A stretch of DNA of 29,401 nt from IMG/VR virus record IMGVR_UViG_3300035140_000038, positions 1 to 29,401 of that record. One strand, written 5' to 3'. Below are positions 1 to 29,162 of this stretch, one piece after another; position 1 is the stretch's first letter; each line of letters begins with the position of its first letter. Under the pieces are notes generated by a model that saw only the letters and a list, made by a program, of their open reading frames with translations, was not told the DNA's origin and ran no database searches. Source of the DNA: a virus. Its lineage: Duplodnaviria; Caudoviricetes. The translations under genes were made by a program, and so were the position numbers.

Positions 1-1518
1 GCTGCAATAACAGCAGGTTTTGGAGGTTCTATAATAGCTGCTTCGAAATTTCAGCAAGAAATATCTAATGTTTTTACTCTTTTAGATCAAGATACACTAG
101 ATGAATTTGGTGGAGATTTAAAAAAAGCATCAATGCAAGCTTTAAAGATGGGGTTTAGCATTCAAGATTCTAATAAAGCATTATTTGACACAGTATCCGC
201 TATTGGGGATGTAGAAAAATCAATAGGCATATATCAACAAGCGCAAAAACTTGCTATTGGAGGTGTTACCGATTTAAGCATTGCCGTAGATGGCATAACA
301 TCTATAATGAATGCTTATGGTAAGGAAGTAACAGATGCAAAAGATGTATCAAATGCTTTTTTCTCGTCGCAAAGGGCTGGTAAAACTACAGTTGCTGCAT
401 TAGCTGTCAATGTAGGAAAGGTGGCTCCAGTAGCCAAACAGGCAGGTGTAGGGTATAAAGAATTGCTTGCGACTATGTCTCAATTAACTTTAGCGGGGTT
501 ATCAACAGAAGAGGCTAGTACTGCCTTAAGGTCTGCTATGAGTGGTTTACTTGCGCCATCTAAAGAAGCAATTAAAATATTTAAAAAAGCAAAAATACCA
601 GTGGGAGCAGCCGCTTTACAGAGTGCTAATTGGGCAGATGTTTTGGCCAAAATCCCATCTGTTTTGGAAAAAAATAAGGATGCATTGTCTGACATGTTTC
701 CTAATATAAGGGCAATGACAGCGGCAGGCTCTTTAGGAGCAAAAGAAATAGAAAATTTGCGTAAAATTGTAGTTAAAACAAATGAAGATATTAAAAATGG
801 GACTGGGTTGACAGATGCTTATAATTTACAAATGGAAAATATATCAAGACAATTTAAAATTTTCAAAGGCACGCTTACAGTAGTCGCGATCAAATTTGGC
901 ACGTTGCTTTTCCCAGCTATTAAGAAAGTTTTAAAAGTAGGGATAAAGCTTTTAACTTTTTTTGAACTTTTAAGTCCCGCGTCCAAAACTGTTATTTTAG
1001 TTTTAGGTGCAATAGTTGGGGTAATATCAGGCATAACATTAGCAGTAGCTATAATATTGCCTCTTTTAGCAACATTAAAATTCACATTGGTAACTTTAGG
1101 CATCACAGCCGGCACAACTTGGGGAGCAATTCTTGGACCAATAACATTAATAATATTAGGGATAGCAGCAGTAACCGCTGCTATAATACTACTAATTGAA
1201 AAATGGGATATTTTTAAAAAAGCATTATTAAATATTGTTGATCTTTTTAATAAACTTTTCCCAAGAGCAGCGGCTCTTTTTAAAATGATAGAAAAAATTG
1301 CCGGAGTTTTAGGCATTATAAAAGGTGCAAATTTAGCAGCAAAAGGCTTTCAACTTCCGCAATTAGCCACAGTCGGAGCAGGGGTACAATCAAGCTTAGA
1401 TGCTAATATTAATATGAATGTAAATGCGCCTAAAGGGGCGGTTCAAAGTATTGTTTCAAAAACTAAATCTAATAACAGTAATGTTAATCTTGGTATTAAT
1501 ATGGAAGAAAGCTTATGA
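1..1518 (+). CDS. Phage tail tape measure protein (TP901-type core), 5'-partial
   Basis: Frame is open from base 1, upstream of the ORF-track Met at 133. Ala/Gly-rich helical repeats (VAPVAKQAGVGYKELLA, LSTEEASTALRS), hydrophobic C-terminal helices, and position just before the baseplate genes. Confidence 0.92.
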   Translation, partial: AAITAGFGGSIIAASKFQQEISNVFTLLDQDTLDEFGGDLKKASMQALKMGFSIQDSNKALFDTVSAIGDVEKSIGIYQQAQKLAIGGVTDLSIAVDGITSIMNAYGKEVTDAKDVSNAFFSSQRAGKTTVAALAVNVGKVAPVAKQAGVGYKELLATMSQLTLAGLSTEEASTALRSAMSGLLAPSKEAIKIFKKAKIPVGAAALQSANWADVLAKIPSVLEKNKDALSDMFPNIRAMTAAGSLGAKEIENLRKIVVKTNEDIKNGTGLTDAYNLQMENISRQFKIFKGTLTVVAIKFGTLLFPAIKKVLKVGIKLLTFFELLSPASKTVILVLGAIVGVISGITLAVAIILPLLATLKFTLVTLGITAGTTWGAILGPITLIILGIAAVTAAIILLIEKWDIFKKALLNIVDLFNKLFPRAAALFKMIEKIAGVLGIIKGANLAAKGFQLPQLATVGAGVQSSLDANINMNVNAPKGAVQSIVSKTKSNNSNVNLGINMEESL

Positions 1519-2711
1519 CTTTAGCAAGCGAAGAATCATTAATAGCTTCTTTTCGTGGAGTCCCCTTTTTTTGGCGGAATAGCTCTTTGACTACCGGCCA
1601 AAAAACAATAACACATGAATATCCAAAATCTAATAGAAGATTTGTTGAGCAAAACGGGTTATTTAATGATGTTTTCACGATAGAGGCCGAAATAAAAAAT
1701 GATAATTATAAAATTAATAGAGACCGATTAAAAAAAGCCTTAAATCTTGAAGGCAGTGGGATATTGCAATTGCCTATGCAGGATAGAATGCTTGTAAAGG
1801 TGGAAGGAACTTATACTATTAGAGAAGATTATAGGAATTTAGGTGAAGCAGTTTTTAGTATTACATTCGCAAAAACAGATACTAATATATTACCAATAGC
1901 AATTGTCAATCCTGCAAAAATAAATACTTTAGCAAAAAATACAACTGAGGAAATGGGAGCGACATTTATTTCCAATTTCAAAAGTGTTGCTAATAAAATC
2001 AGTAATTTTGATGCTGCAAAAGCTAAAATATCAGAATTTACAACTAAAATCAATAAAAAAGTTAGTGAAATAAAAACTTTTTCTGAAAAAATCAATAAAT
2101 TCACAGAGCTGATTGAAGAACTTGAAGATGTAGTTGGGAAATATTTAAAAGATATCGAACTGTTAGAAGCGCAAATACAAGCAATATTTGATGAGGTAAG
2201 ATTATTAGGAGAAACAGCGAAAGACAGGTTAATTTTATTTATTGCATTATTTGATTATGGAAGTGAAGATGAACCTATTGCTCAAAATAGTACAACAAAT
2301 AAAGAGAGATATATAAATAATGGATTAATTAATAATTTAATATTAATTAGTTCAATATCTTACGCTTATGTTGAAGCAATAGATATTGAATATATATCAA
2401 CTGATGCAATAGATGAAACTAAAAATATATTAAATGAACAAGTTAATAGAGTATTTAGTAAGGGCGATGAAATTGTCAATGGGGTTTTTGATAGCTTGAA
2501 AACTTTACAAAGTGAAGCAAATAATTTTTTAGAAAAGAAAAAAATTAATACAGCAAAAATTATTGAAACAAACACACAAGAAACTACATTAACAGCTCTT
2601 ACTTATCAATATTATGGTTCTTTAGATAATTATGAAAATTTAATTGATTTAAATAATTTTATTGATTTACAATTTATTAGAGGCAATATTAAGGTATTAA
2701 CAAATGAGTGA
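1515..2711 (+). CDS. Mu-like DNA circularization / tail protein (gpN/gp43-like)
   Basis: N-terminal ASFRGVPF...HEYP...FVEQNG motif typical of DNA_circ_N; C-terminal LTYQYYG...LIDLN; follows the tape measure gene. Confidence 0.85.
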   Translation: MTLASEESLIASFRGVPFFWRNSSLTTGQKTITHEYPKSNRRFVEQNGLFNDVFTIEAEIKNDNYKINRDRLKKALNLEGSGILQLPMQDRMLVKVEGTYTIREDYRNLGEAVFSITFAKTDTNILPIAIVNPAKINTLAKNTTEEMGATFISNFKSVANKISNFDAAKAKISEFTTKINKKVSEIKTFSEKINKFTELIEELEDVVGKYLKDIELLEAQIQAIFDEVRLLGETAKDRLILFIALFDYGSEDEPIAQNSTTNKERYINNGLINNLILISSISYAYVEAIDIEYISTDAIDETKNILNEQVNRVFSKGDEIVNGVFDSLKTLQSEANNFLEKKKINTAKIIETNTQETTLTALTYQYYGSLDNYENLIDLNNFIDLQFIRGNIKVLTNE

Positions 2712-3801
2712 TATTCTTTTGGAAGTTGAAGGAACTGCTTATAGTGGTTTTACGGATATTTCGGTAACTAAAAATATAGAAAATTTATCGGGAGAATTTA
2801 CTTTTAGTTCTACTGAACCTGAAAAGATTAATAATATTCCTCTAAAAAACGGGGCTGTTGCAAGAGTTTTAATTAACGGGATACCAGTTATAACTGGGTT
2901 TATTGATCCTATAATTAACAATATAGATATATCAACGCATAGTATAAGTGTTTCTGGGAGAGATAAAACTAGTGATATTATAGATAGTTCAGCTCCTTTG
3001 GGGTTAAATATACAATCTAATATAAGCTTGAAATCAGTAATTGAAAAAACATTAATTGCTTCTGGTAACTCAAATGTAAAAGTAATTGATAAAGTAGGTA
3101 ATTTAGAGAATTTTTCAAAGAATGATATTATACAAGTTTCTGTCGGAGAAACTATATTTCAATTTTTAGAAAAATATGCAAGGAAAAGACAAGTATTACT
3201 TAATAGTGATGGTGATGGCAATATAGTTATTGATAGAGCATCAACAATAAGTACTGATACAAAATTATTTTTTTATGATGGAGATAAAGAGAAGCAGAAT
3301 AATGTGAAATTTGCTTCGCCTGTTTTCGATGATACAGGAAGGTTTTACAAAATTACGATGGTGTCGCAAGGGTCGCCTAACTCTGGGTCAAAGTATAACC
3401 CATCAGATTTGGTTATGTCTAAAGGCATAGCTTATGACAATGAGATAAGAAAAAGTAAGCAATTGATTATATTGTCTGAAAATACAATGAATAAAAAAAC
3501 ATTAACTAACCGCGCAAAATGGGAAGTTAATGTAAGACGTGCAAGATCAATAGTTTGGAATGGGACTGTACAAGATGTAATTGATTCTAATGGCAATATT
3601 TGGATGCCGAACACTTTGGTAGAAATTATTGATGAAGTAAATAAAATCAATGCAGAAATGCTAATAAAATCAGTAACTTATGGTTTAAGTTTAACCACAG
3701 GAACGACTACATTATTAAGTTGTGTTTCTTCAGATGCTTATACATTACAAGCATCTATAGATGAATTAGATGCTAGATATAATAAAAAAGGTAGGGATTA
3801 A
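2704..3801 (+). CDS. Mu gp44/gpP-like baseplate hub protein
   Basis: Motifs VITGFID, ISVSGRDKTSDIIDSS, GETIFQFLEKYAR, SDGDGNIVI, WMPNTLVEI; synteny. Confidence 0.88.
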   Translation: MSDILLEVEGTAYSGFTDISVTKNIENLSGEFTFSSTEPEKINNIPLKNGAVARVLINGIPVITGFIDPIINNIDISTHSISVSGRDKTSDIIDSSAPLGLNIQSNISLKSVIEKTLIASGNSNVKVIDKVGNLENFSKNDIIQVSVGETIFQFLEKYARKRQVLLNSDGDGNIVIDRASTISTDTKLFFYDGDKEKQNNVKFASPVFDDTGRFYKITMVSQGSPNSGSKYNPSDLVMSKGIAYDNEIRKSKQLIILSENTMNKKTLTNRAKWEVNVRRARSIVWNGTVQDVIDSNGNIWMPNTLVEIIDEVNKINAEMLIKSVTYGLSLTTGTTTLLSCVSSDAYTLQASIDELDARYNKKGRD

Positions 3802-7974: not shown

Positions 7975-8002
7975 TTGACATATTTTAAAAAATGTGTATA
8001 AT
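7975..8002 (+). promoter_or_regulatory. Sigma70-type promoter
   Basis: TTGACA (7975-7980), 16-nt spacer, TATAAT (7997-8002). Confidence 0.75.
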
Positions 8003-8031
8003 AAGATATGTCAATTAACTAAAATAAACTA

Positions 8032-8105
8032 TTGATATTGAGTAACTGGATAAAGTTAGCATATAGAACTCCAGAGCTATTATAAGCCTAATCGCTCAAT
8101 ATCAA
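8032..8105 (+). ncRNA. Candidate structured leader RNA (multi-stem junction)
   Basis: Perfect 11-bp closing stem TTGATATTGAG/CTCAATATCAA enclosing two small hairpins, in a non-coding leader downstream of the promoter. Confidence 0.45.
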
Positions 8106-8149
8106 ATCTTAATAGGTCGATAGTGGATGAGCACTAACGATAACAATAT

Positions 8150-8190
8150 ATAGAGTATAAAGGTCTCATCACCTGAGTACTCTATTTTTT
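8150..8190 (+). terminator. Intrinsic terminator/attenuator upstream of the 8210 gene
   Basis: ATAGAGTA/TACTCTAT outer stem, AGGT/ACCT inner stem, loop CTCATC, then a T-run. Confidence 0.65.
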
Positions 8191-8209
8191 ATTGGGAGGT
8201 TAAAATAAA

Positions 8210-8413: not shown

Positions 8414-8988
8414 AAAAAATATTAATATTATTTATGTTATGTATTATGAATTTAAATTTTAGTGGATGTGAATGGTTAAATAAATTGTTAGGGCTTGAAA
8501 AAGAAAAGACTAAACAAGAAGAAGTAGCAAAAACAGAAAATAAACCTAAACAAGAAGAAGAGGAAGAGGAAAAGGAAGAAGAAAAAAAGCCAGAAGAACC
8601 AGAAGAAAAATTAATAAGTAGAGAAAGGCTTGATGGAACGAATGTGTATAAAGAAGAGTGGACTTCATATTATTTGTGGTCAGGTGGGTTTTGGATAAAT
8701 TCAACTGGAAAAATTATGCCTGTTTTCAACAAAACAGGTCAGTCTATGTTGACTGCCAGTAGGATTGTAGAATATTATTATATAGTAGAACATCCATCAA
8801 CACAAGAACAAATAAAATTATATCCTAAATTGCCAGCAGAAGAGGGCTGGAAAGTATACCCTTTTGATGATTGGCCTCATACAACTATGGAATGGAAGAG
8901 TTATATTTCTTCGCAAATAAGCTTAGTAATTTTTAAGCTTAAACCAAAAACTTGGGCGACTATATATTTGAAAATTAATAAATATTGA
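8410..8988 (+). CDS. Putative lipoprotein (moron-like)
   Basis: MKK + hydrophobic stretch + lipobox FSGC; acidic/Lys-rich linker followed by a globular domain. Confidence 0.7.
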   Translation: MKKILILFMLCIMNLNFSGCEWLNKLLGLEKEKTKQEEVAKTENKPKQEEEEEEKEEEKKPEEPEEKLISRERLDGTNVYKEEWTSYYLWSGGFWINSTGKIMPVFNKTGQSMLTASRIVEYYYIVEHPSTQEQIKLYPKLPAEEGWKVYPFDDWPHTTMEWKSYISSQISLVIFKLKPKTWATIYLKINKY

Positions 8989-9013
8989 AAAAAATATAAT
9001 AATTTTGTATAAT
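8985..9013 (+). promoter_or_regulatory. Sigma70-type promoter
   Basis: TTGAAA (8985-8990), 17-nt spacer, TATAAT (9008-9013). Confidence 0.65.
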
Positions 9014-9055
9014 GTCAATTAAAATAATTATCTTAATATTATGGTGATCTAATAC

Positions 9056-9102
9056 AAAAGAGCCAGAATTACATATTACATGTAGTTTTGGCTCTTTTTT
9101 TT
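9056..9102 (+). terminator. Intrinsic terminator/attenuator
   Basis: AAAAGAGCCAGAATTACA / TGTAGTTTTGGCTCTTTT stem (with G-U pairs) running into a T8 tract. Confidence 0.8.
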
Positions 9103-9119
9103 GATTATAGGAGGAAAGT

Positions 9120-15751: not shown

Positions 15752-16123
15752 ATGCCAAAATTTAGTAAATTATCACAGACCAGACTTGCTACTTGCCATC
15801 TTGATATTCAAATTGTTATGGAAAAAGCAATCAAGTATTATAATTTTAGTGTTGTGTGTGGGCACAGAAGCGAACAAGAACAGAATAAAGCTTATCGACA
15901 AGGGTTTTCTAAATTAATATATCCTAATAGTAGGCATAATAAAACCCCATCGACTGCAATTGATATAGTGCCATATCCTATTGATTGGCATAATATCAAT
16001 AGATTCTATCAAATGGCTGGTGTTGTATTAACAATTGCAAAACAATCTTTTATTGTCTTAGAATGGGGAGGCAATTGGCAAACATTTAAAGACTACCCGC
16101 ATTTTCAGTTGAAGAAAAAATAG
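15752..16123 (+). CDS. Endolysin, peptidase M15 family (L-Ala-D-Glu type)
   Basis: GHRSEQEQ, SRHN...AID, WGGNW and DYPHFQL zinc-peptidase motifs. Confidence 0.92.
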   Translation: MPKFSKLSQTRLATCHLDIQIVMEKAIKYYNFSVVCGHRSEQEQNKAYRQGFSKLIYPNSRHNKTPSTAIDIVPYPIDWHNINRFYQMAGVVLTIAKQSFIVLEWGGNWQTFKDYPHFQLKKK

Positions 16124-16158: not shown

Positions 16159-16436
16159 TGTATCCTGGAAGTTATCACTTCCAGTACCTAGTCTTCTCGA
16201 AAGCTAGGTAGAAAAAGTAGCGGGGTTGTAGACATACATCCCCAGCAGATATATAATCACTGCGTAGCGGGGGTTATATGTGAAAGGTTCTTTTCCGTCG
16301 ACAAAAACTCAAGCAGTTTTTAATTTGCCTAACCCCACCGGCAAGTTATAGTCGGAAAAGTCAAAGCCTACTTAATATGAAGGTCGGCTACATGCCGTAG
16401 TTTGAAAAAACTTAGTATTAGGTAGGCTTTTCTTTT
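16159..16436 (+). ncRNA. Candidate ~280-nt structured non-coding RNA
   Basis: No ORF of 60 aa or more; GC-richer than flanks; consecutive hairpins, a possible pseudoknot, own promoter and terminal stem. Confidence 0.6.
16363..16436 (+). terminator. Long terminal stem / intrinsic terminator
   Basis: AAAGCCTACTTAATA / TATTAGGTAGGCTTT followed by TCTTTT. Confidence 0.65.
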
Positions 16437-16445
16437 GGTATAGAA

Positions 16446-16512
16446 CTTGACAAATTGCAGTATAATTTGTATAATATGTTATAACAAAATTAAAAAGGAG
16501 GAAGGGGAAATG
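16446..16512 (+). promoter_or_regulatory. Early promoter/RBS cassette, copy 1
   Basis: CTTGACAAATTGCAGTATAATTTGTATAAT (TTGACA-17-TATAAT) ... AAAAGGAGGAAGGGGAAATG. Confidence 0.92.
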
Positions 16513-16710
16513 AATAAATTAGAGTTACTCAGAGCCAAAATAAAATCACTAAGTATCCCAATGCTAAAGGAAGTTTTAGAAAAAATTGATAAATTACACA
16601 CGGAATCTGGAGACATTATTTTTGAAGAAGGATTAAAAATTTTAGAAGAAAAAATGTTAGAATATCAATCAAAAAAAGATTTTATTAATTTTTGCAATAA
16701 ATTGAGTTAA
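16510..16710 (+). CDS. Hypothetical early protein (66 aa)
   Basis: ATG 16510 after the cassette RBS; the ORF-track start at 16447 lies in the -35 box. Confidence 0.8.
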   Translation: MNKLELLRAKIKSLSIPMLKEVLEKIDKLHTESGDIIFEEGLKILEEKMLEYQSKKDFINFCNKLS

Positions 16711-16728
16711 TTTTCTTTTGGGATAGGG

Positions 16729-16795
16729 CTTGACAAATTGCAGTATAATTTGTATAATTAATTATACAAAATAAAAAAAGGAGGAAGGGGAAATG
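16729..16795 (+). promoter_or_regulatory. Early promoter/RBS cassette, copy 2
   Basis: Identical 30-bp promoter core at 16729-16758 and the same RBS/ATG. Confidence 0.92.
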
Positions 16796-17377
16796 GAAAG
16801 AAAAGAAATGAAAGAATTAATTAGAAGATGCGGGCTAGTATATCGTGGAGAGTTAAGGGCTAACATTAGCTGGATGCAGAAAGCCGAGCGAGAAAAAATG
16901 ATAGCAATAATTAAGAAGAATAAAAAAGAAATACTAGATAATATCGACGATATCAGATCAGAATTATATCGCGAAGAAAAAAATATAGAAAATGAAGAAA
17001 AAGAAAAACGAGAAGCTGAAGAAAAAATTGAATATGCGCCATTAATGAAATTCTTAGACGGAAAATATCCCATTCGAAAAAATATAAATGCAGATGAAAA
17101 TAAGTATAATGAAATGGTAAACAAAATCAATAATTTCAAAAATAAATACCAAAATGAAGGCGAAGATGAAGGACTTTTTCACGCGGGAGAACATGAAAAA
17201 AGTAAGTTAATAATGGAATTGAAAGAATGTTGTAATCATAAATATACAATTAAATACGAAAAAGATAGAATGGGTTCCAGTGATAATTATGCGAAAGTGT
17301 TAATTAGAAAAATACATTGTGAAAAATGCGGTGATAATGCAACACATGATGTTTCCGATTTTGATTTGAAAAAATAA
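16793..17377 (+). CDS. Hypothetical early protein (C-terminal Cys/His cluster)
   Basis: Cassette RBS; CCNH...HCEKC. Confidence 0.8.
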   Translation: MERKEMKELIRRCGLVYRGELRANISWMQKAEREKMIAIIKKNKKEILDNIDDIRSELYREEKNIENEEKEKREAEEKIEYAPLMKFLDGKYPIRKNINADENKYNEMVNKINNFKNKYQNEGEDEGLFHAGEHEKSKLIMELKECCNHKYTIKYEKDRMGSSDNYAKVLIRKIHCEKCGDNATHDVSDFDLKK

Positions 17378-17786: not shown

Positions 17787-18100
17787 AAATAACAACATTT
17801 TTTTTGCGCGGAGGTTATAGAGATAATATTAAAGTAACAGCATCTATTATTAAGGGAATAAAAAAAGATAATACTTTTGACAAGCAAATGAAACAATATC
17901 GATTTATAAGTGAATGTTCAGCCAAACATATTTACTATGATTATTATTTTGATGGCGAAGATGGTGATTTGGTAGAAATTTATGAAAAATCAGAATATAT
18001 ACAAAACGTTAAATACTATAAGGTTTTATATGGGGAATTAAAAGAAATTAATGTTGGTTATATTGTAAAATATTTCAAGGATGTGAAATATGCCGAATAA
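17783..18100 (+). CDS. Hypothetical protein
   Basis: ATGA overlap with the upstream ORF. Confidence 0.7.
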   Translation: MKITTFFLRGGYRDNIKVTASIIKGIKKDNTFDKQMKQYRFISECSAKHIYYDYYFDGEDGDLVEIYEKSEYIQNVKYYKVLYGELKEINVGYIVKYFKDVKYAE

Positions 18101-19319
18101 GAACTATAAAAAAATTAATGTTTTAGACGCTTCAATTGAAAGGATAAAATATGTTTTTGATAATTTTGAAAAAATATATTTGTCTTTTTCAGGAGGCAAA
18201 GATTCGACTGTAATGTTACATTTGTGTATGGATGAAGCAATTAAAAGAAATAGAAAAATAGGAGTGTTAATAGTTGATTTGGAAGCGCAATATAAATTAA
18301 CAATTGAACATATATATGAAATTGTAGAATTATATAAAAATAATATTGATTTATATTGGGTATGTCTACCAATATCATTAAGAAATGCAGTTAGTCAATA
18401 TGAACCTAAATGGATGTGTTGGGAGAAAAATAAAGATTGGGTTAGGCAACCTCCAAAAGAATCTATAACAGATATTAATTATTTTGATTTTTTTAAAATA
18501 GGTATGGAGTTCGAAGAGTTTGTTCCAGCTTTTGGTAAATGGTATGGAAAGGGTGAAAATACAGCTTGTTTAGTTGGTATTCGAGCTGATGAGTCATTAC
18601 ATAGATATCGAACAATTAGATTTGAGGGGAAAAAAACATTTAGAGGGAAAATGTATACTACTCATGTAGTAAGCTTGGTTTATAATGTTTATCCTATTTA
18701 TGATTGGAGAGCAAAGGATATTTGGGTATATAATTCTAAGTTTAAAAAATGTTATAACATATTATATGATAGAATGCACCAAGCTGGTTTAAGTATTCAC
18801 CAGCAAAGAATTTGTCAGCCTTACGGAGATGACCAAAAGAAAGGTCTATGGTTATATCATGTAATAGAACCTGAAACTTGGGGTAAATTAATATCAAGGG
18901 TAAATGGAGCTAATTTTGGTGCTTTATATGTTTGTGAAACTGGAAACATTTTTGGAAATATTAAAATATCAAAACCAGATGGGCACACGTGGAAATCTTT
19001 TTCTGAATTATTACTTAAATCTATGCCATCTAAAACATCTGAACATTATGAAAATAAAATATTAATATTTTTACGTTGGTGGGAACATAAAGATATTCAA
19101 TATTTAAATGGTATTCCAGATGAAGCCGATAGAAAATTAGAAATGGATCGTAAAATCCCATCATGGAGAAGAATTTGTAGGTGTCTTTTGAAAAATGATT
19201 ATTGGTGTAAAAGTTTATCTTTTAGTATGCATGTGAATGAAGCTTATCGAAAATATTTAAAATTAATGCGAAAAAGGAAAGAAAAATGGAAAGTAAATCT
19301 AATAAAAAACAGTTATTAA
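18090..19319 (+). CDS. ibrA: PAPS-reductase-like / DUF3440 protein (IbrA/YbdN family)
   Basis: SFSGGKDS PP-loop, VGIRADES, YPIYDW, QRICQPYGDDQ and IPSWRRICRCLLKNDYWC motifs. Confidence 0.88.
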   Translation: MPNKNYKKINVLDASIERIKYVFDNFEKIYLSFSGGKDSTVMLHLCMDEAIKRNRKIGVLIVDLEAQYKLTIEHIYEIVELYKNNIDLYWVCLPISLRNAVSQYEPKWMCWEKNKDWVRQPPKESITDINYFDFFKIGMEFEEFVPAFGKWYGKGENTACLVGIRADESLHRYRTIRFEGKKTFRGKMYTTHVVSLVYNVYPIYDWRAKDIWVYNSKFKKCYNILYDRMHQAGLSIHQQRICQPYGDDQKKGLWLYHVIEPETWGKLISRVNGANFGALYVCETGNIFGNIKISKPDGHTWKSFSELLLKSMPSKTSEHYENKILIFLRWWEHKDIQYLNGIPDEADRKLEMDRKIPSWRRICRCLLKNDYWCKSLSFSMHVNEAYRKYLKLMRKRKEKWKVNLIKNSY

Positions 19320-19816
19320 ATTGGACAAAAAAACATCCAGTTTCAAATGTAGTATGGATAGAATCAGATAAAGTTCAAGCGAACGATTACAATCCAAATA
19401 AAGTTGCAAAACCTGAAATGGAATTGTTAAGACTTAGTATCGAATCAGATGGCTACACACAGCCAATTGTAGTATGGGAAATTAAGGAAAATGAATATCA
19501 AGTAATAGATGGATTCCATAGACATATCGTCGGGAAAGAAATGGGCTTAACTCATTTACCTTGTGTGATAATTAACAAAAATCGAGAAAATAAAAATGAT
19601 AGAATTGCATCAACTATAAGACATAACCGTGCGCGTGGAAAACATACTATTGACGGGATGAGTAATATTGTTGTCGAGCTAACAAGAAGAAACTGGAATG
19701 ACAAAAAAATAGCTAAAGAATTAGGGATGGATGCAGACGAAGTATTAAGACTAAAGCAAATAACTGGATTGGCTGAATTATTTAAGGATGAAGATTTTAG
19801 TTTGAGTTGGGAGTAA
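19286..19816 (+). CDS. ibrB: ParB-like nuclease-domain protein (IbrB/YbdM family)
   Basis: ANDYNPNKVA, DGYTQPIVV, VIDGFHR, STIRHNRARGKH and LGMDADEVLRLKQITG motifs; overlaps ibrA. Confidence 0.9.
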   Translation: MESKSNKKQLLNWTKKHPVSNVVWIESDKVQANDYNPNKVAKPEMELLRLSIESDGYTQPIVVWEIKENEYQVIDGFHRHIVGKEMGLTHLPCVIINKNRENKNDRIASTIRHNRARGKHTIDGMSNIVVELTRRNWNDKKIAKELGMDADEVLRLKQITGLAELFKDEDFSLSWE

Positions 19817-19834
19817 TATTTTCAGACCCCAACA

Positions 19835-19902
19835 CTTGACAAATTGCAGTATAATTTGTATAATTAATTATAACAAAATAAAAAAAGGAGGAAGGGGAAA
19901 TG
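19835..19902 (+). promoter_or_regulatory. Early promoter/RBS cassette, copy 3
   Basis: Identical 30-bp core at 19835-19864 and the same RBS/ATG. Confidence 0.92.
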
Positions 19903-20181
19903 AATAAAATCTTTAATAATTTTCAGAAAAATCAAATTGTTAATGTGTGTGGTTTTCATGGGGAAAAATACGAAAATGGGCAAAGAAAACTAAGTGTAAT
20001 GAAATGTGTTGTCGAGAATGTCCGGAAGGATAAAATATTAGTAAGTCAATTTCATAACCGCGATTTGCACTGTTGGGTCGAAGAGACAACAGTTTTTTGC
20101 CCTACAAAACGTTTTTCCCGAATATTGAAAAATGGGAAAAAAATAGCTGTGTATCGATACCAAGTACAATTTTTCGATTAA
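19900..20181 (+). CDS. Hypothetical early protein
   Basis: Cassette RBS and ATG. Confidence 0.75.
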   Translation: MNKIFNNFQKNQIVNVCGFHGEKYENGQRKLSVMKCVVENVRKDKILVSQFHNRDLHCWVEETTVFCPTKRFSRILKNGKKIAVYRYQVQFFD

Positions 20182-20835: not shown

Positions 20836-21171
20836 ATGAGTGCAAAATCTATTTTGAAAAAACCATTGAATGCTAAAAAAATAAGTAAATATCCGACGGA
20901 AGAAGTGCAGTTGGAAGCAGTAAAAAATAACGGTAATGTAATACGATATATTCATAGGCCGACGGAAGAAATGCAGTTGGCGGCGGTAAAAAATAACGGG
21001 TATGCAATACAATATATTCATACTCCGTCGGAGGAGGTGCAGTTGGAAGCAGTAAAAAATAACGGTGATGCAATACAATATATTCATAGTCCGACGGAAG
21101 CAGTGAAAGATTACCTGTTTCAAAACAAAAAAAGTATATTTTGTAAATATTTCAAGTTTAAGGAGGCATAA
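20836..21171 (+). CDS. Helical repeat protein (DUF4116-like PTEEVQLEAVKNNG..IQYI repeats)
   Basis: Three full 22-aa repeats plus a partial one; RBS AAGGAGG. Confidence 0.8.
   Translation: MSAKSILKKPLNAKKISKYPTEEVQLEAVKNNGNVIRYIHRPTEEMQLAAVKNNGYAIQYIHTPSEEVQLEAVKNNGDAIQYIHSPTEAVKDYLFQNKKSIFCKYFKFKEA
20893..21105 (+). repeat. 66-bp tandem repeat (about 3.2 copies), coding
   Basis: Units start at 20893, 20959, 21025 and 21091. Confidence 0.95.
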
Positions 21172-24745: not shown

Positions 24746-25293
24746 CACAAAAAGAATTGGATAAATTAATTGAATCTCACCAAGAATATTTAAAATCTGG
24801 CGAAGAAAAATATAGGCTTAAATTGAATGATACTGATTGTTCTGGGTTAGACTTGAGAAATGCAAACTTGAGAAGTTCAAACTTGATTGGAGCAAACTTG
24901 AGTTATGCAAACTTGAGTTATGCAGACTTGAGTTATGCAAACTTGAGTTATGCAGACTTGAGATATGCAGACTTGAGATATGCAGACTTGAGAAGTGCAG
25001 ACTTGAGAGGTGCAGACTTGAGAAGTGCAAACTTGAGTGATGCAGACTTGAGAGGAGCAGACTTGAGAGGTGCAAAAACTGATTTGCAAATTATTAGTAT
25101 TATCGGGATTGGTAGCGAACGGCGAATGACAACATATATATTTGATTTTGACAAAATTTTTTGTGGATGTTTTAGTGGAACTTTGGCAGAATTTGAAGCT
25201 CGTGTAAAAGAAAAAAAAGCAAATAATAAAAAAGAATTAAGTGAGTATTTGGATTTTATTGAATATTTAAAAAAGAGGAAATCAGATGTATAG
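24733..25293 (+). CDS. Pentapeptide repeat protein
   Basis: About 15 A(D/N)Lxx repeats; C-terminal CGCFSGTLAEFE domain. Confidence 0.95.
   Translation: MRKITQKELDKLIESHQEYLKSGEEKYRLKLNDTDCSGLDLRNANLRSSNLIGANLSYANLSYADLSYANLSYADLRYADLRYADLRSADLRGADLRSANLSDADLRGADLRGAKTDLQIISIIGIGSERRMTTYIFDFDKIFCGCFSGTLAEFEARVKEKKANNKKELSEYLDFIEYLKKRKSDV
24847..25071 (+). repeat. 15-bp tandem repeat (15 units, GCA(A/G)ACTTGAGNNNN), coding
   Basis: Directly visible; encodes the pentapeptide repeats. Confidence 0.95.
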
Positions 25294-25465
25294 GTGCAAA
25301 AATTGTAAATATTTGCAAAGGTGGGATAGAGGCAAAAAAATCATTATATATTGTAGTTTCTATAAATCAAATAAGAATGAAATTGTTAAAATAAGCAAAG
25401 ACAGACCTGCTTGCAAGTATTTTGAAAAAATTAATGAAAAAATATATAAAAATCTTGACAAATAA
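25286..25465 (+). CDS. Small Cys-rich protein (59 aa)
   Basis: MYRCKNCKY...YC...ACKYFEK; RBS GAGG; below the ORF-track cutoff. Confidence 0.6.
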   Translation: MYRCKNCKYLQRWDRGKKIIIYCSFYKSNKNEIVKISKDRPACKYFEKINEKIYKNLDK

Positions 25466-25484
25466 ATAATAAATATTATATAAT
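25455..25484 (+). promoter_or_regulatory. Sigma70-type promoter for the replication operon
   Basis: TTGACA (25455-25460), 18-nt spacer, TATAAT (25479-25484). Confidence 0.7.
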
Positions 25485-25513
25485 ATTTATTCAGGGGTGA
25501 AACAAAACAAATA

Positions 25514-25557
25514 GCAGAGCTGAAAGGATCACCCCTCCTTGAGGCTCTGTTTTTTTT
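25514..25557 (+). terminator. Attenuator-type intrinsic terminator in the leader of the replication initiator
   Basis: GCAGAGC/GCTCTGT and AAGGA/TCCTT stems, loop TCACCCC, T8 tail. Confidence 0.75.
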
Positions 25558-25572
25558 CAGAAGGAATTAAAT

Positions 25573-27437: not shown

Positions 27438-27532
<95 letters not shown>

Positions 27533-28205: not shown

Positions 28206-29162
28206 ATGAAACAAATATTCAAAACTATATATGGCTCAAGACTATATGGGACATCAACAACATCAAGTGATTATGATTATAAAGGTGTTTTTTTGCCTCC
28301 TAAACAAAATTTATACTTGGGTCGCTGTCCTAAAAGTACTAGTTCAAATACTAACAATGACTCGTGTAAAAATTCTAGTAAAGATATTGACTTTGAAAAC
28401 TATTCAATACAATTTTTTTTGAAACTAGCTTCGCAAGGACAAACAGTGGCCTTAGATATGCTTCATGTTCAAAGGCAACAAGCTAATATTTGGAGTCCTA
28501 CATGGGAATTTTTGCATAAAAATAGAAAAAAGTTTCATACGAAAAGTTTAAAATCTTATTTTGGATATTGCAGAAAACAAGCTTCAAAATATGGCGTTAA
28601 GGGTTCAAGATTATCGGATGTAAAAAGAGTTATAGACTTGCTCCAAGCATATATTAACTCTGGGCGAGGAAGTCTTATATTAAATCAAATTTGGGATATC
28701 TTACCAGAAGGAGAACATATTGAAAAGATTATAATTGCAGAATCTATGCAAAAAGACAAAAGAGCTTATAGTGTTTGCGGTCGAAAAGTAATGGCCACAT
28801 CAAAAATTGAATATATTATGAGTGTTTTTCAAAAAATATATGACAATTATGGGGAGCGAGCAAAAAAAGCAGAGTCAAACAAAGGAATTGATTGGAAAGC
28901 TATATCCCACGCCTTTAGAGCTGGGTTGCAACTCAAAGAAATATATACAACAAATGATCTTGTTTTCCCTCTGAAAGATGCTAAATTTTTACTAGAAATA
29001 AAAAATGGAAAGTTAAATTTTAAAAATGACGTTCAAAAACAACTTGAAGATTTAATCGATGAAATTGAAATTCTTTCGTCAAAATCTGAATATCCAGAAA
29101 AAGTAGATATATCTTTTTTTGAGAATTTTATTATTGAGTGTTATAAAAAAGAGGGAATATAA
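28206..29162 (+). CDS. DNA polymerase beta-superfamily nucleotidyltransferase (RlaP/YcgL, T4 NrdC.11-like)
   Basis: GSRLYGT...SDYDYKGVF catalytic motif; GQTVALDMLH, QASKYG, DWKAISHA. Confidence 0.88.
   Translation: MKQIFKTIYGSRLYGTSTTSSDYDYKGVFLPPKQNLYLGRCPKSTSSNTNNDSCKNSSKDIDFENYSIQFFLKLASQGQTVALDMLHVQRQQANIWSPTWEFLHKNRKKFHTKSLKSYFGYCRKQASKYGVKGSRLSDVKRVIDLLQAYINSGRGSLILNQIWDILPEGEHIEKIIIAESMQKDKRAYSVCGRKVMATSKIEYIMSVFQKIYDNYGERAKKAESNKGIDWKAISHAFRAGLQLKEIYTTNDLVFPLKDAKFLLEIKNGKLNFKNDVQKQLEDLIDEIEILSSKSEYPEKVDISFFENFIIECYKKEGI

Follow-up and report, generated by a model that had tools for sequence, protein, structure and literature searches.

A putative stand-alone RNA gene at the lysis-early junction of an uncultured phage with Mu-like baseplate genes

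An intergenic element of 278 nucleotides (16159 to 16436, + strand), situated between the lysis genes and the early region of an uncultured phage, is likely to represent a stand-alone small RNA gene, seemingly built from modules that are shared among phages with Mu-like tails. The sequence that contains it (hereafter 'the window', meaning the whole stretch of DNA that was analysed) is a 29.4-kb virus record from a wetland metagenome run, estimated to be about 35% complete, with a G+C content of 30%. At the level of sequence the element has the layout of an independent gene (its own promoter match, its own terminator match and no sizeable reading frame); it is also strongly folded, matches no Rfam family, and has one hairpin (H4) in common with a distant relative, G414. 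A preliminary description had proposed a free-standing RNA of no catalogued family, and these observations support that proposal, in which transcription of the element is a prediction that appears quite probable. The explanation preferred here, which is put forward tentatively, is that such an RNA would present H4 to a protein, either as a decoy or as a docking site. A function is known for few of the non-coding RNAs of phages, and the catalogued ones come mostly from cultured hosts; the element is most likely a phage non-coding RNA, which is a known kind, and may serve as a lead to a wider, uncatalogued family.

Setting, anatomy and folding of the element

The genes of the window encode a contractile tail with Mu-like baseplate genes, then an endolysin, and then, from 16510, an early region made up of small genes, a PAPS-reductase/ParB pair, an exonuclease, Rep, DnaC, a tRNA-Ser and a nucleotidyltransferase; no integrase was found in the window. 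The element is bounded on its 5' side by the endolysin gene (15752 to 16123, + strand; an M15 peptidase, with matches to phrog_465 at E 8.6e-40 and to PF13539), which is the final gene of the tail-lysis operon, and on its 3' side by the early promoter P3. For the phage-specific proteins of the window almost no relatives were found. The closest relatives recovered are 29-49% identical in a baseplate protein. Rep resembles Bacillota loci and phages (its first half is 67-78% identical to three Bacillota loci), and the best matches of the endolysin are to phages of Gram-negative bacteria. The sequence of the element is identical in a second IMG/VR contig, and contigs of run X1 cover it without differences, both of which may come from the same sample as the source record. 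The PAPS-reductase/ParB pair (18090 to 19816), which is early here, is found among baseplate genes in four relatives (L110, L133, L135 and L142), which suggests a mobile cassette; two early genes contain coding repeats of 66 and 15 bases (20892 to 21105 and 24804 to 25119).

The stems, promoter and repeats that had been listed in the preliminary description were all located at the positions claimed for them, with small corrections to individual stems. The putative long RNA (278 nt, its ends placed from the promoter and the T tract) opens with two hairpins set back to back (16165 to 16210, + strand): H1 (8 bp, 16165 to 16184), which is a perfect palindrome, and H2 (7+3 bp with one bulge, 16185 to 16210). 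These are followed (16217 to 16246, + strand) by the first copy of a 9-mer termed the 'G-box' (16217 to 16225) and by hairpin H3 (16222 to 16243), which holds a T-T mismatch, and then by H4 (16249 to 16281, + strand; arms 16251 to 16258 and 16272 to 16279), whose 3' arm is the second copy of the G-box. H4 consists of an A/U-rich lower stem, an A-G mismatch, G-U pairs and a 3-base loop. The three-way junction beyond it (16290 to 16360, + strand) carries a loop of 5 bases and one of 10 bases, L3 (16330 to 16339), which is C-rich and exposed, with a probability of 1.0 of being unpaired in the long RNA. Both junction arms are present, and as originally written both use base 16321; the second of them, like H4, contains one G-T pair. 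The 9-mer occurs at 16217 and 16264, with no further copy in the window, and the 7-mer at 16330-16336 is, as had been pointed out, complementary to 16270-16276.

The earlier statement that no sizeable reading frame exists was also upheld. A 23-codon frame with a GTG start is present (16280 to 16351, + strand), behind a run of G residues that resembles the early ribosome-binding sites of this phage, and is probably not a gene; its peptide has no Pfam match, and G414 has no start codon at the matching site.

The minimum free energy of the element (-94.3 kcal/mol) corresponds to a z-score of -6.45, and none of 200 dinucleotide shuffles was equally stable. With the terminal stem removed the z-score is still -5.3, and the three parts of the element, when folded separately, give values of -5.2, -3.6 and -5.5. 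Nearly all of the listed pairs form with a probability above 0.8 (two terminal pairs reach 0.33 and 0.65). On a grid phased to the start of the element, its energy is the lowest among 291 segments of 278 nt (the next non-overlapping segment having -77.2), and on an unphased grid of 150-nt segments only the 3' part of the element falls within the top 15 of 195. The G+C content of the core (0.43, versus 0.30 for the genome) is in the top 0.7% of segments. A GC-rich 9-mer repeat arises in 0.06% of 5000 shuffles, and any 9-mer repeat in 14%; no tandem array was detected within 16159-16436 at a score of 30.

Promoters, terminator and two predicted transcripts

The hexamers of the promoter ahead of the element (P1; 16124 to 16152, + strand) were confirmed as a putative sigma-70-type site that agrees with the consensus at 11 of 12 positions, with a predicted start near 16159. 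Within the element there is an inner promoter-like site (P2; 16229 to 16257, + strand), likewise at 11/12 and with a 17-nt spacer, whose predicted start (about 16264) lies within the H4 loop, at the point where the 9-mer occurs for the second time. A site of this grade is found in 0.5% of shuffles of the element (a chance of 0.005), and it is considered moderately probable that P2 is real. Sites matching at least 11 of the 12 consensus positions number nine in the window, all on the gene strand and none on the opposite one, and eight of the nine are intergenic. The early promoter P3 (16447 to 16475, + strand; 12/12) has a 7-7-7 palindrome and belongs to the first of three repeated cassettes (16428 to 16523, 16711 to 16806 and 19817 to 19912), each of which combines an early promoter and ribosome-binding site with an operator-like palindrome. 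The palindrome between the hexamers is common to P3, P4 and P5 and is lacking from P1 and P2, so that the element appears to be separately controlled.

The long terminal stem with a T-rich tail that had been noted at the end of the element was likewise confirmed (16363 to 16430, with 8 T in the next 9 bases); the whole feature (16363 to 16436, + strand) comprises a stem of 15-16 bp with a G/C-rich base, an inner hairpin and the T tract. At equilibrium the stem forms with a probability of 1.0 in every fold tested, whichever pairing is forced, and for that reason it likely ends the RNA of the element and the late operon, as an intrinsic terminator serving P1, P2 and that operon, rather than acting as an attenuator. 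A consensus terminator scan called no terminator at the element, because its loop is too long; a scan for terminators with long loops returned two sites per strand in the window, of which the terminal stem alone falls between the lysis genes and P3. This T tract is also present ahead of the second promoter cassette, with no hairpin detected there, and its recurrence in a duplicated cassette makes it weaker as independent evidence of a terminator.

Elsewhere in the window, at 8985-9105, a promoter match is accompanied by a terminator hairpin of 19 bp (z -6.1); a short motif at the top of this hairpin is also present in the inner loop of the terminal stem of the element. A consensus promoter, a structured 200-nt leader (z -3.2) and a T-tailed hairpin at 7975-8200 stand ahead of two unknown genes and are a candidate for a second RNA, or an attenuator, in a moron-like block. 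At 25455-25560, a promoter and then a terminator-like hairpin lie just before rep; the loop of this hairpin, which we take to resemble the 3' end of 16S rRNA, scores -19.9 kcal/mol against the early ribosome-binding sites, better than all of 200 shuffles (200/200).

The preliminary description had further suggested that 16270-16276 and 16330-16336 might pair with each other, as an alternative fold or as a pseudoknot. By chance, a complementary loop 7-mer arises in 6-7% of cases when the loop is randomised and in 11 of 150 shuffles of the whole element (in 0 of 150 when at least four G/C are required), so that the match alone is only suggestive. In the 278-nt RNA the probability of this pairing is about zero, and forcing it costs 6.6 kcal/mol. 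In the predicted short RNA (16264 to 16436, + strand; 173 nt), on the other hand, it belongs to the lowest-energy fold, with a probability of 0.78-0.89 for starts from 16262 to 16265, and the probability of the junction falls to 0.1-0.2. As a nested alternative (the folding program scores nested folds, without pseudoknots) the pairing excludes both H4 and the junction. The folds of the long and the short RNA are thus mutually exclusive, which leaves the pseudoknot unsupported; a true pseudoknot also looks strained, with a 3-base link across 7 bp. Since the pairing appears only in the short RNA, the 'alternative pairing' is best read as a second fold of that shorter molecule. G414, the sole case available for comparison, has neither P2 nor a loop complementary to the G-box, and neither P2 nor the alternative pairing is conserved there.

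In the model preferred here, transcription from P1 would run as far as the terminator, which is also the predicted end of the late operon, and would give the 278-nt RNA; this long form would display H4 to a protein partner of either host or phage origin. P2, by starting within the loop of H4, would give rise to the 173-nt form, which would lack H4 and hide the C-rich loop, so that the choice of promoter would set the ratio of H4-bearing to H4-less RNA. If P2 is real, the element would show in compact form how a single RNA gene can have two folds, the promoter choosing between them.

Hairpin H4 in related phages and searches for known families

R1, a covariance model built from a single sequence (16213 to 16364), matched one of 30 related virus records, namely G414, and did so at H4 (E 6.8e-4 for that record). 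Seventeen bases of H4 (16257 to 16273) are identical in G414, its pairs are all kept (11/11), and the variable pairs are compensated (2/2), a level of covariation that, with two sequences, is not significant (113 of 500 shuffles do as well). When 500 shuffles were compared with 1.9 Mb of sequence from relatives (the G414 region having been added to it after the match), 20 of them gave an exact 17-base match, and a reversed control pattern matched 1 of 45 records with at most 2 mismatches. Global alignment of the element with the G414 region is weak (78.5, versus 63.7 +/- 6.6 with a maximum of 89).

The match is made more convincing by its gene-free and strongly folded setting in G414. It falls on the matching strand of an 800-nt region (L210, 860 to 1665, corresponding to about 2243-3048 of G414:C1; minus strand) that has no sizeable gene on that strand and that sits in an operon leading to a DnaB helicase. 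The region folds with a z-score of -8.4, versus -4.1 on the opposite strand (25 mononucleotide shuffles), and contains many hairpins and a repeated 22-base stretch; GNRA tetraloops make up 8 of its 23 loops, versus 0 of 20 on the other strand. Against the explanation preferred here, the loops of the element include none (0/7), and its G-U pairs show no preference for the + strand (6 of 94, versus 8 of 85). The G414 region, for which no Rfam, phage or plasmid match was found, is a candidate for a large RNA or a cluster of RNAs. That H4 is truly homologous in the two phages appears highly probable.

Recognition of H4 by a protein is suggested by the pattern of its conservation, in that the 17 bases at its top are identical, non-canonical pairs included, and the lower stem varies only in compensated pairs; because the identical bases are mostly paired, a protein would fit better than pairing with an mRNA. 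Exact preservation of the hairpin in two phages with only about 35% identity in their baseplate proteins suggests that its partner is fixed, and H4 offers a 30-base handle for pull-down.

A further relative, G411, has a gene-free block of 1.1 kb with a tRNA-Gly-like gene (L213, about 930-2070, minus strand). H4 was not found in G411; the hairpins upstream of H4 in G414 are shared with it (77% over 70 nt, E 3e-9, with compensated changes). In both the window phage and G414 a hairpin with a G-rich arm precedes H4, and a five-base G-rich core opens a hairpin at the same relative place in the window phage (where it is the 5' arm of H3), G411 and G414; this last homology is weak, because the row for the window phage is gapped or broken at many pairs. 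The gene-free regions of the relatives are three to four times longer than the element, and these blocks of 0.8-1.1 kb suggest an unannotated RNA family. A broader proposal, which must be regarded as doubtful, is that Mu-tailed phages carry an uncatalogued, modular family of multi-hairpin RNAs, 0.3-1.1 kb in length, that head early or replication operons; the window phage would then have a minimal version, whose two nested promoters would yield either H4 together with an open seed loop (in the long RNA) or neither of them (in the short one).

Structured non-coding stretches were also seen in other loci. A conserved element in AT-rich phages (L085, L060, L049, L035, L088 and L032, at about 380-700) has two copies of a 21-base unit, together with a hairpin that covaries and a complementary box at a distance, with no Rfam match; tried as a homologue of the window element by means of R1, it proved not to be homologous. 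Another stretch, following a tail gene (L193, 300 to 600), contains a long-range helix between a G-box and a C-box and has no phage or Rfam match.

The preliminary description had recognised no known family in the element, and a scan against Rfam 15 bore this out: no family reached the gathering threshold there, and the only hit in the whole window was the tRNA at 27438. Matches within the element (8 and 6, at E 0.18-8.9) all lay at least 20 bits under threshold, and the families covered included tmRNA, 6S, SRP, RNase P, ribozymes, riboswitches, c4, CRISPR repeats, and GOLLD and ROOL where included. Within the element ARAGORN likewise identified no tmRNA or tRNA-like domain, the sole gene that it called in the window being the tRNA-Ser at 27438. 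Likenesses to SRP helix 8, the c-di-GMP-I and preQ1 riboswitches, RNase P, the tmRNA tag, type I-E and Cas12a repeats, IS200/605 ends and MISL RNA were dropped, as none had Rfam support, and no anti-defence RNA family fitted the element. Retron non-coding RNAs adjoin a reverse transcriptase gene (PMC5737381), and no reverse transcriptase was found among the 48 proteins of the window or the 27 that were rescanned (in a genome about 35% complete). Literature searches by topic rather than by sequence returned no paper on the element, which may have been published elsewhere, and nothing on MISL RNA. The word 'uncatalogued' is used here relative to Rfam 15, and the supplements of two studies (PMC5737381 and PMC2864571) list motifs that may be missing from Rfam.

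The search for homologues that the preliminary description had proposed gave no full-length copy, and gave the recurrence of H4 in G414. Comparison of the element by blastn produced short matches only among phages (11 records, E 0.1-0.4), none among plasmids, and only the promoter cassettes within its own genome. Exact patterns in IMG/VR recovered the identical contig alone in two scans, with one chance locus added by a third; of the 81 and 14 loci given by two other patterns, none besides the identical contig aligned (scores of at most 31, versus more than 600) or matched R1. The element was absent from endolysin neighbourhoods at 5 viral and 11 metagenome loci (37-54% identity), and from 79 baseplate-linked loci within the DNA examined. 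Among whole related records, R1 matched 1 of 30 (G414), R2 0 of 30 and R3 1 of 80 (its own source sequence); six of the 80 records searched are at least 90% complete, and L185, one of the 79 relatives, was excluded from the record searches. In a Bacillota sample the three models each matched 0 of 151 and the pattern 0 of 401, and the blastn matches (5 of 401 at E <=0.01, 4 of these 5 inside long open frames) were at chance level.

Alternative explanations and known systems

The rival explanation that survives best, which is judged somewhat unlikely, is that the element encodes an antisense or immunity-type RNA, in which L3 would be the seed for pairing to the two upstream G-boxes and to G-rich ribosome-binding sites, after the manner of the P4 CI RNA or the C-rich small RNAs of Bacillota. 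L3 is indeed fully exposed in the long RNA, its duplexes with the two G-boxes are each of 7 bp (-11.5 and -11.7 kcal/mol; randomised loops have two such sites in 1-5% of cases), a GGGG run is present in 8 of 44 start regions tested (all of them in the early region), and the first half of Rep has the identity to Bacillota loci given above. The leader of the CI RNA contains two sites to which that RNA pairs (PMC4825925), and C-rich regions bind mRNA targets (PMC8216469). However, both G-boxes are upstream of L3 instead of flanking it, and the terminator, being formed whichever pairing is forced, leaves no attenuation switch. The best L3 duplex among the 44 phage start regions is at shuffle level (45%, or 9% with the arm), no antisense target of at least 12 bases was found elsewhere in the window, there is no Rfam match of the c4 type, and G414 is without the partner loop.

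The corresponding known systems resemble the element in part. With the P4 CI RNA and its seqA and seqC sites it has in common a loop complementary to two sites of its own leader; unlike CI/c4, it has both sites upstream rather than on both sides, no switchable terminator, and no Rfam match (PMC4825925), the c4 antisense RNA being Rfam RF01695 (PMC2864571). Its two predicted forms recall IsrK (PMC4825925). Like RoxS, FsrA, RsaE and the sponge RosA (about 229 nt), it is a unit with its own promoter and terminator, comparable in size and carrying both C-rich and G-rich boxes; unlike RosA, whose G-rich boxes are single-stranded, it has two G-boxes that are both predicted to be paired, is phage-encoded, and has no target above chance among the 44 phage start regions (PMC8216469).

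It is unlikely that the element acts instead as DNA, through hairpins formed in single-stranded or extruded DNA for priming, packaging or recombination at the late-early junction. The top of H4 is what we take to be a GNA-triloop mini-hairpin, of a type presumably very stable in DNA; H1 is perfectly palindromic, the two strands give similar values when folded with DNA parameters (-53.2 versus -48.7), and the G414 region belongs to the operon leading to DnaB. Comparative searches for structured motifs can also pick up single-stranded DNA (PMC5737381). Against this explanation, a promoter lies directly 5' and a T tract directly 3' of the element, the junction folds only on the + strand (z -3.6, versus -1.4 on the - strand), the GNRA loops and strand bias in G414 point to RNA, the phage itself encodes Rep and DnaC, at a distance of 9 kb, and the window is without an integrase. 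An RNA-primed prophage origin, such as those described in PMC7157519, is likewise unlikely, because Rep is present.

The element might also be an ordinary junction, in which a late terminator and spare promoters accompany what is left of a longer RNA region in decay, and the 200 bases upstream would have no function at present. Its 3' third is explained as a terminator, there is no full-length homologue, and the corresponding regions of the relatives are three to four times longer; but the z-score of -5.3 without the terminator, the G+C content of 0.43 in a genome of 0.30 and the nearly mismatch-free helices make this distinctly unlikely.

An early leader acting in cis is improbable. In that case P1 and P2 would open a tandem series of early promoters, and RNA polymerase, modified by the 5' hairpins, would read through this terminator and later ones, as with HK022 put, which is two stem-loops just after an early promoter (PMC9378689). 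The element does have two back-to-back stems that start 7 bases after P1, as in putL, and a promoter-proximal terminator precedes rep too. The put site was nevertheless rejected as a counterpart, for it measures about 70 nt and has a G at the stem junction, whereas H1 and H2 span 46 nt as abutting, nearly perfect helices followed by further domains and a strong terminator (PMC9378689); moreover P3 (12/12) is only 11 bases beyond the terminator, so that read-through is not needed. Finally, a translational switch for the 23-residue peptide, in which the G run in the 3' arm of H4 would be a ribosome-binding site that both folds hide and that processing or a ligand opens, is highly improbable: the reading frame is present, and its G run and spacing resemble the start region of gene 20666 (the next-best match of the H4 model, at E 0.024), but an ATG-stop pair overlaps the GTG start, the peptide is polar and without a Pfam match, and G414 has no start codon behind the G run.

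For the stand-alone RNA preferred here, precedents exist among phages, two reports having described non-coding RNAs that come from early promoters or from intergenic units (PMC5712189, PMC10914365), and the Pseudomonas phage candidates of the second of these are similar in position. The Pleft RNA of the cluster A mycobacteriophages (L5, D29 and StarStuff), a repressor-controlled RNA of about 500 nt detected by RNA-seq and northern analysis, is likewise a non-coding RNA several hundred bases long, whose transcription starts at the first early promoter and which precedes small early genes; its forms share their 5' end and have no evident terminator, whereas the element is predicted only, is 278 nt long, has a terminator-like stem, and would have forms that share their 3' end (PMC5712189). 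A decoy role has been proposed for another phage non-coding RNA, the pseudo-ToxI of PhiTE; the type III antitoxin comparison was rejected, as the element is without tandem 36-nt pseudoknot repeats, only the 9-mer recurring (PMC3475682). GOLLD and ROOL, too, are structured RNAs found in phages and prophages, in many cases close to tRNA genes (compare the tRNA-Gly-like gene in G411); unlike them the element is much shorter and consists mostly of independent hairpins, and neither it nor the G414 region has an Rfam match (PMC5737381). In the window itself, a gene for an RlaP-family nucleotidyltransferase (28206 to 29162) lies near the tRNA-Ser gene (27438 to 27532), whose genomic 3' end reads CCA, an arrangement for which a function in RNA repair is possible.
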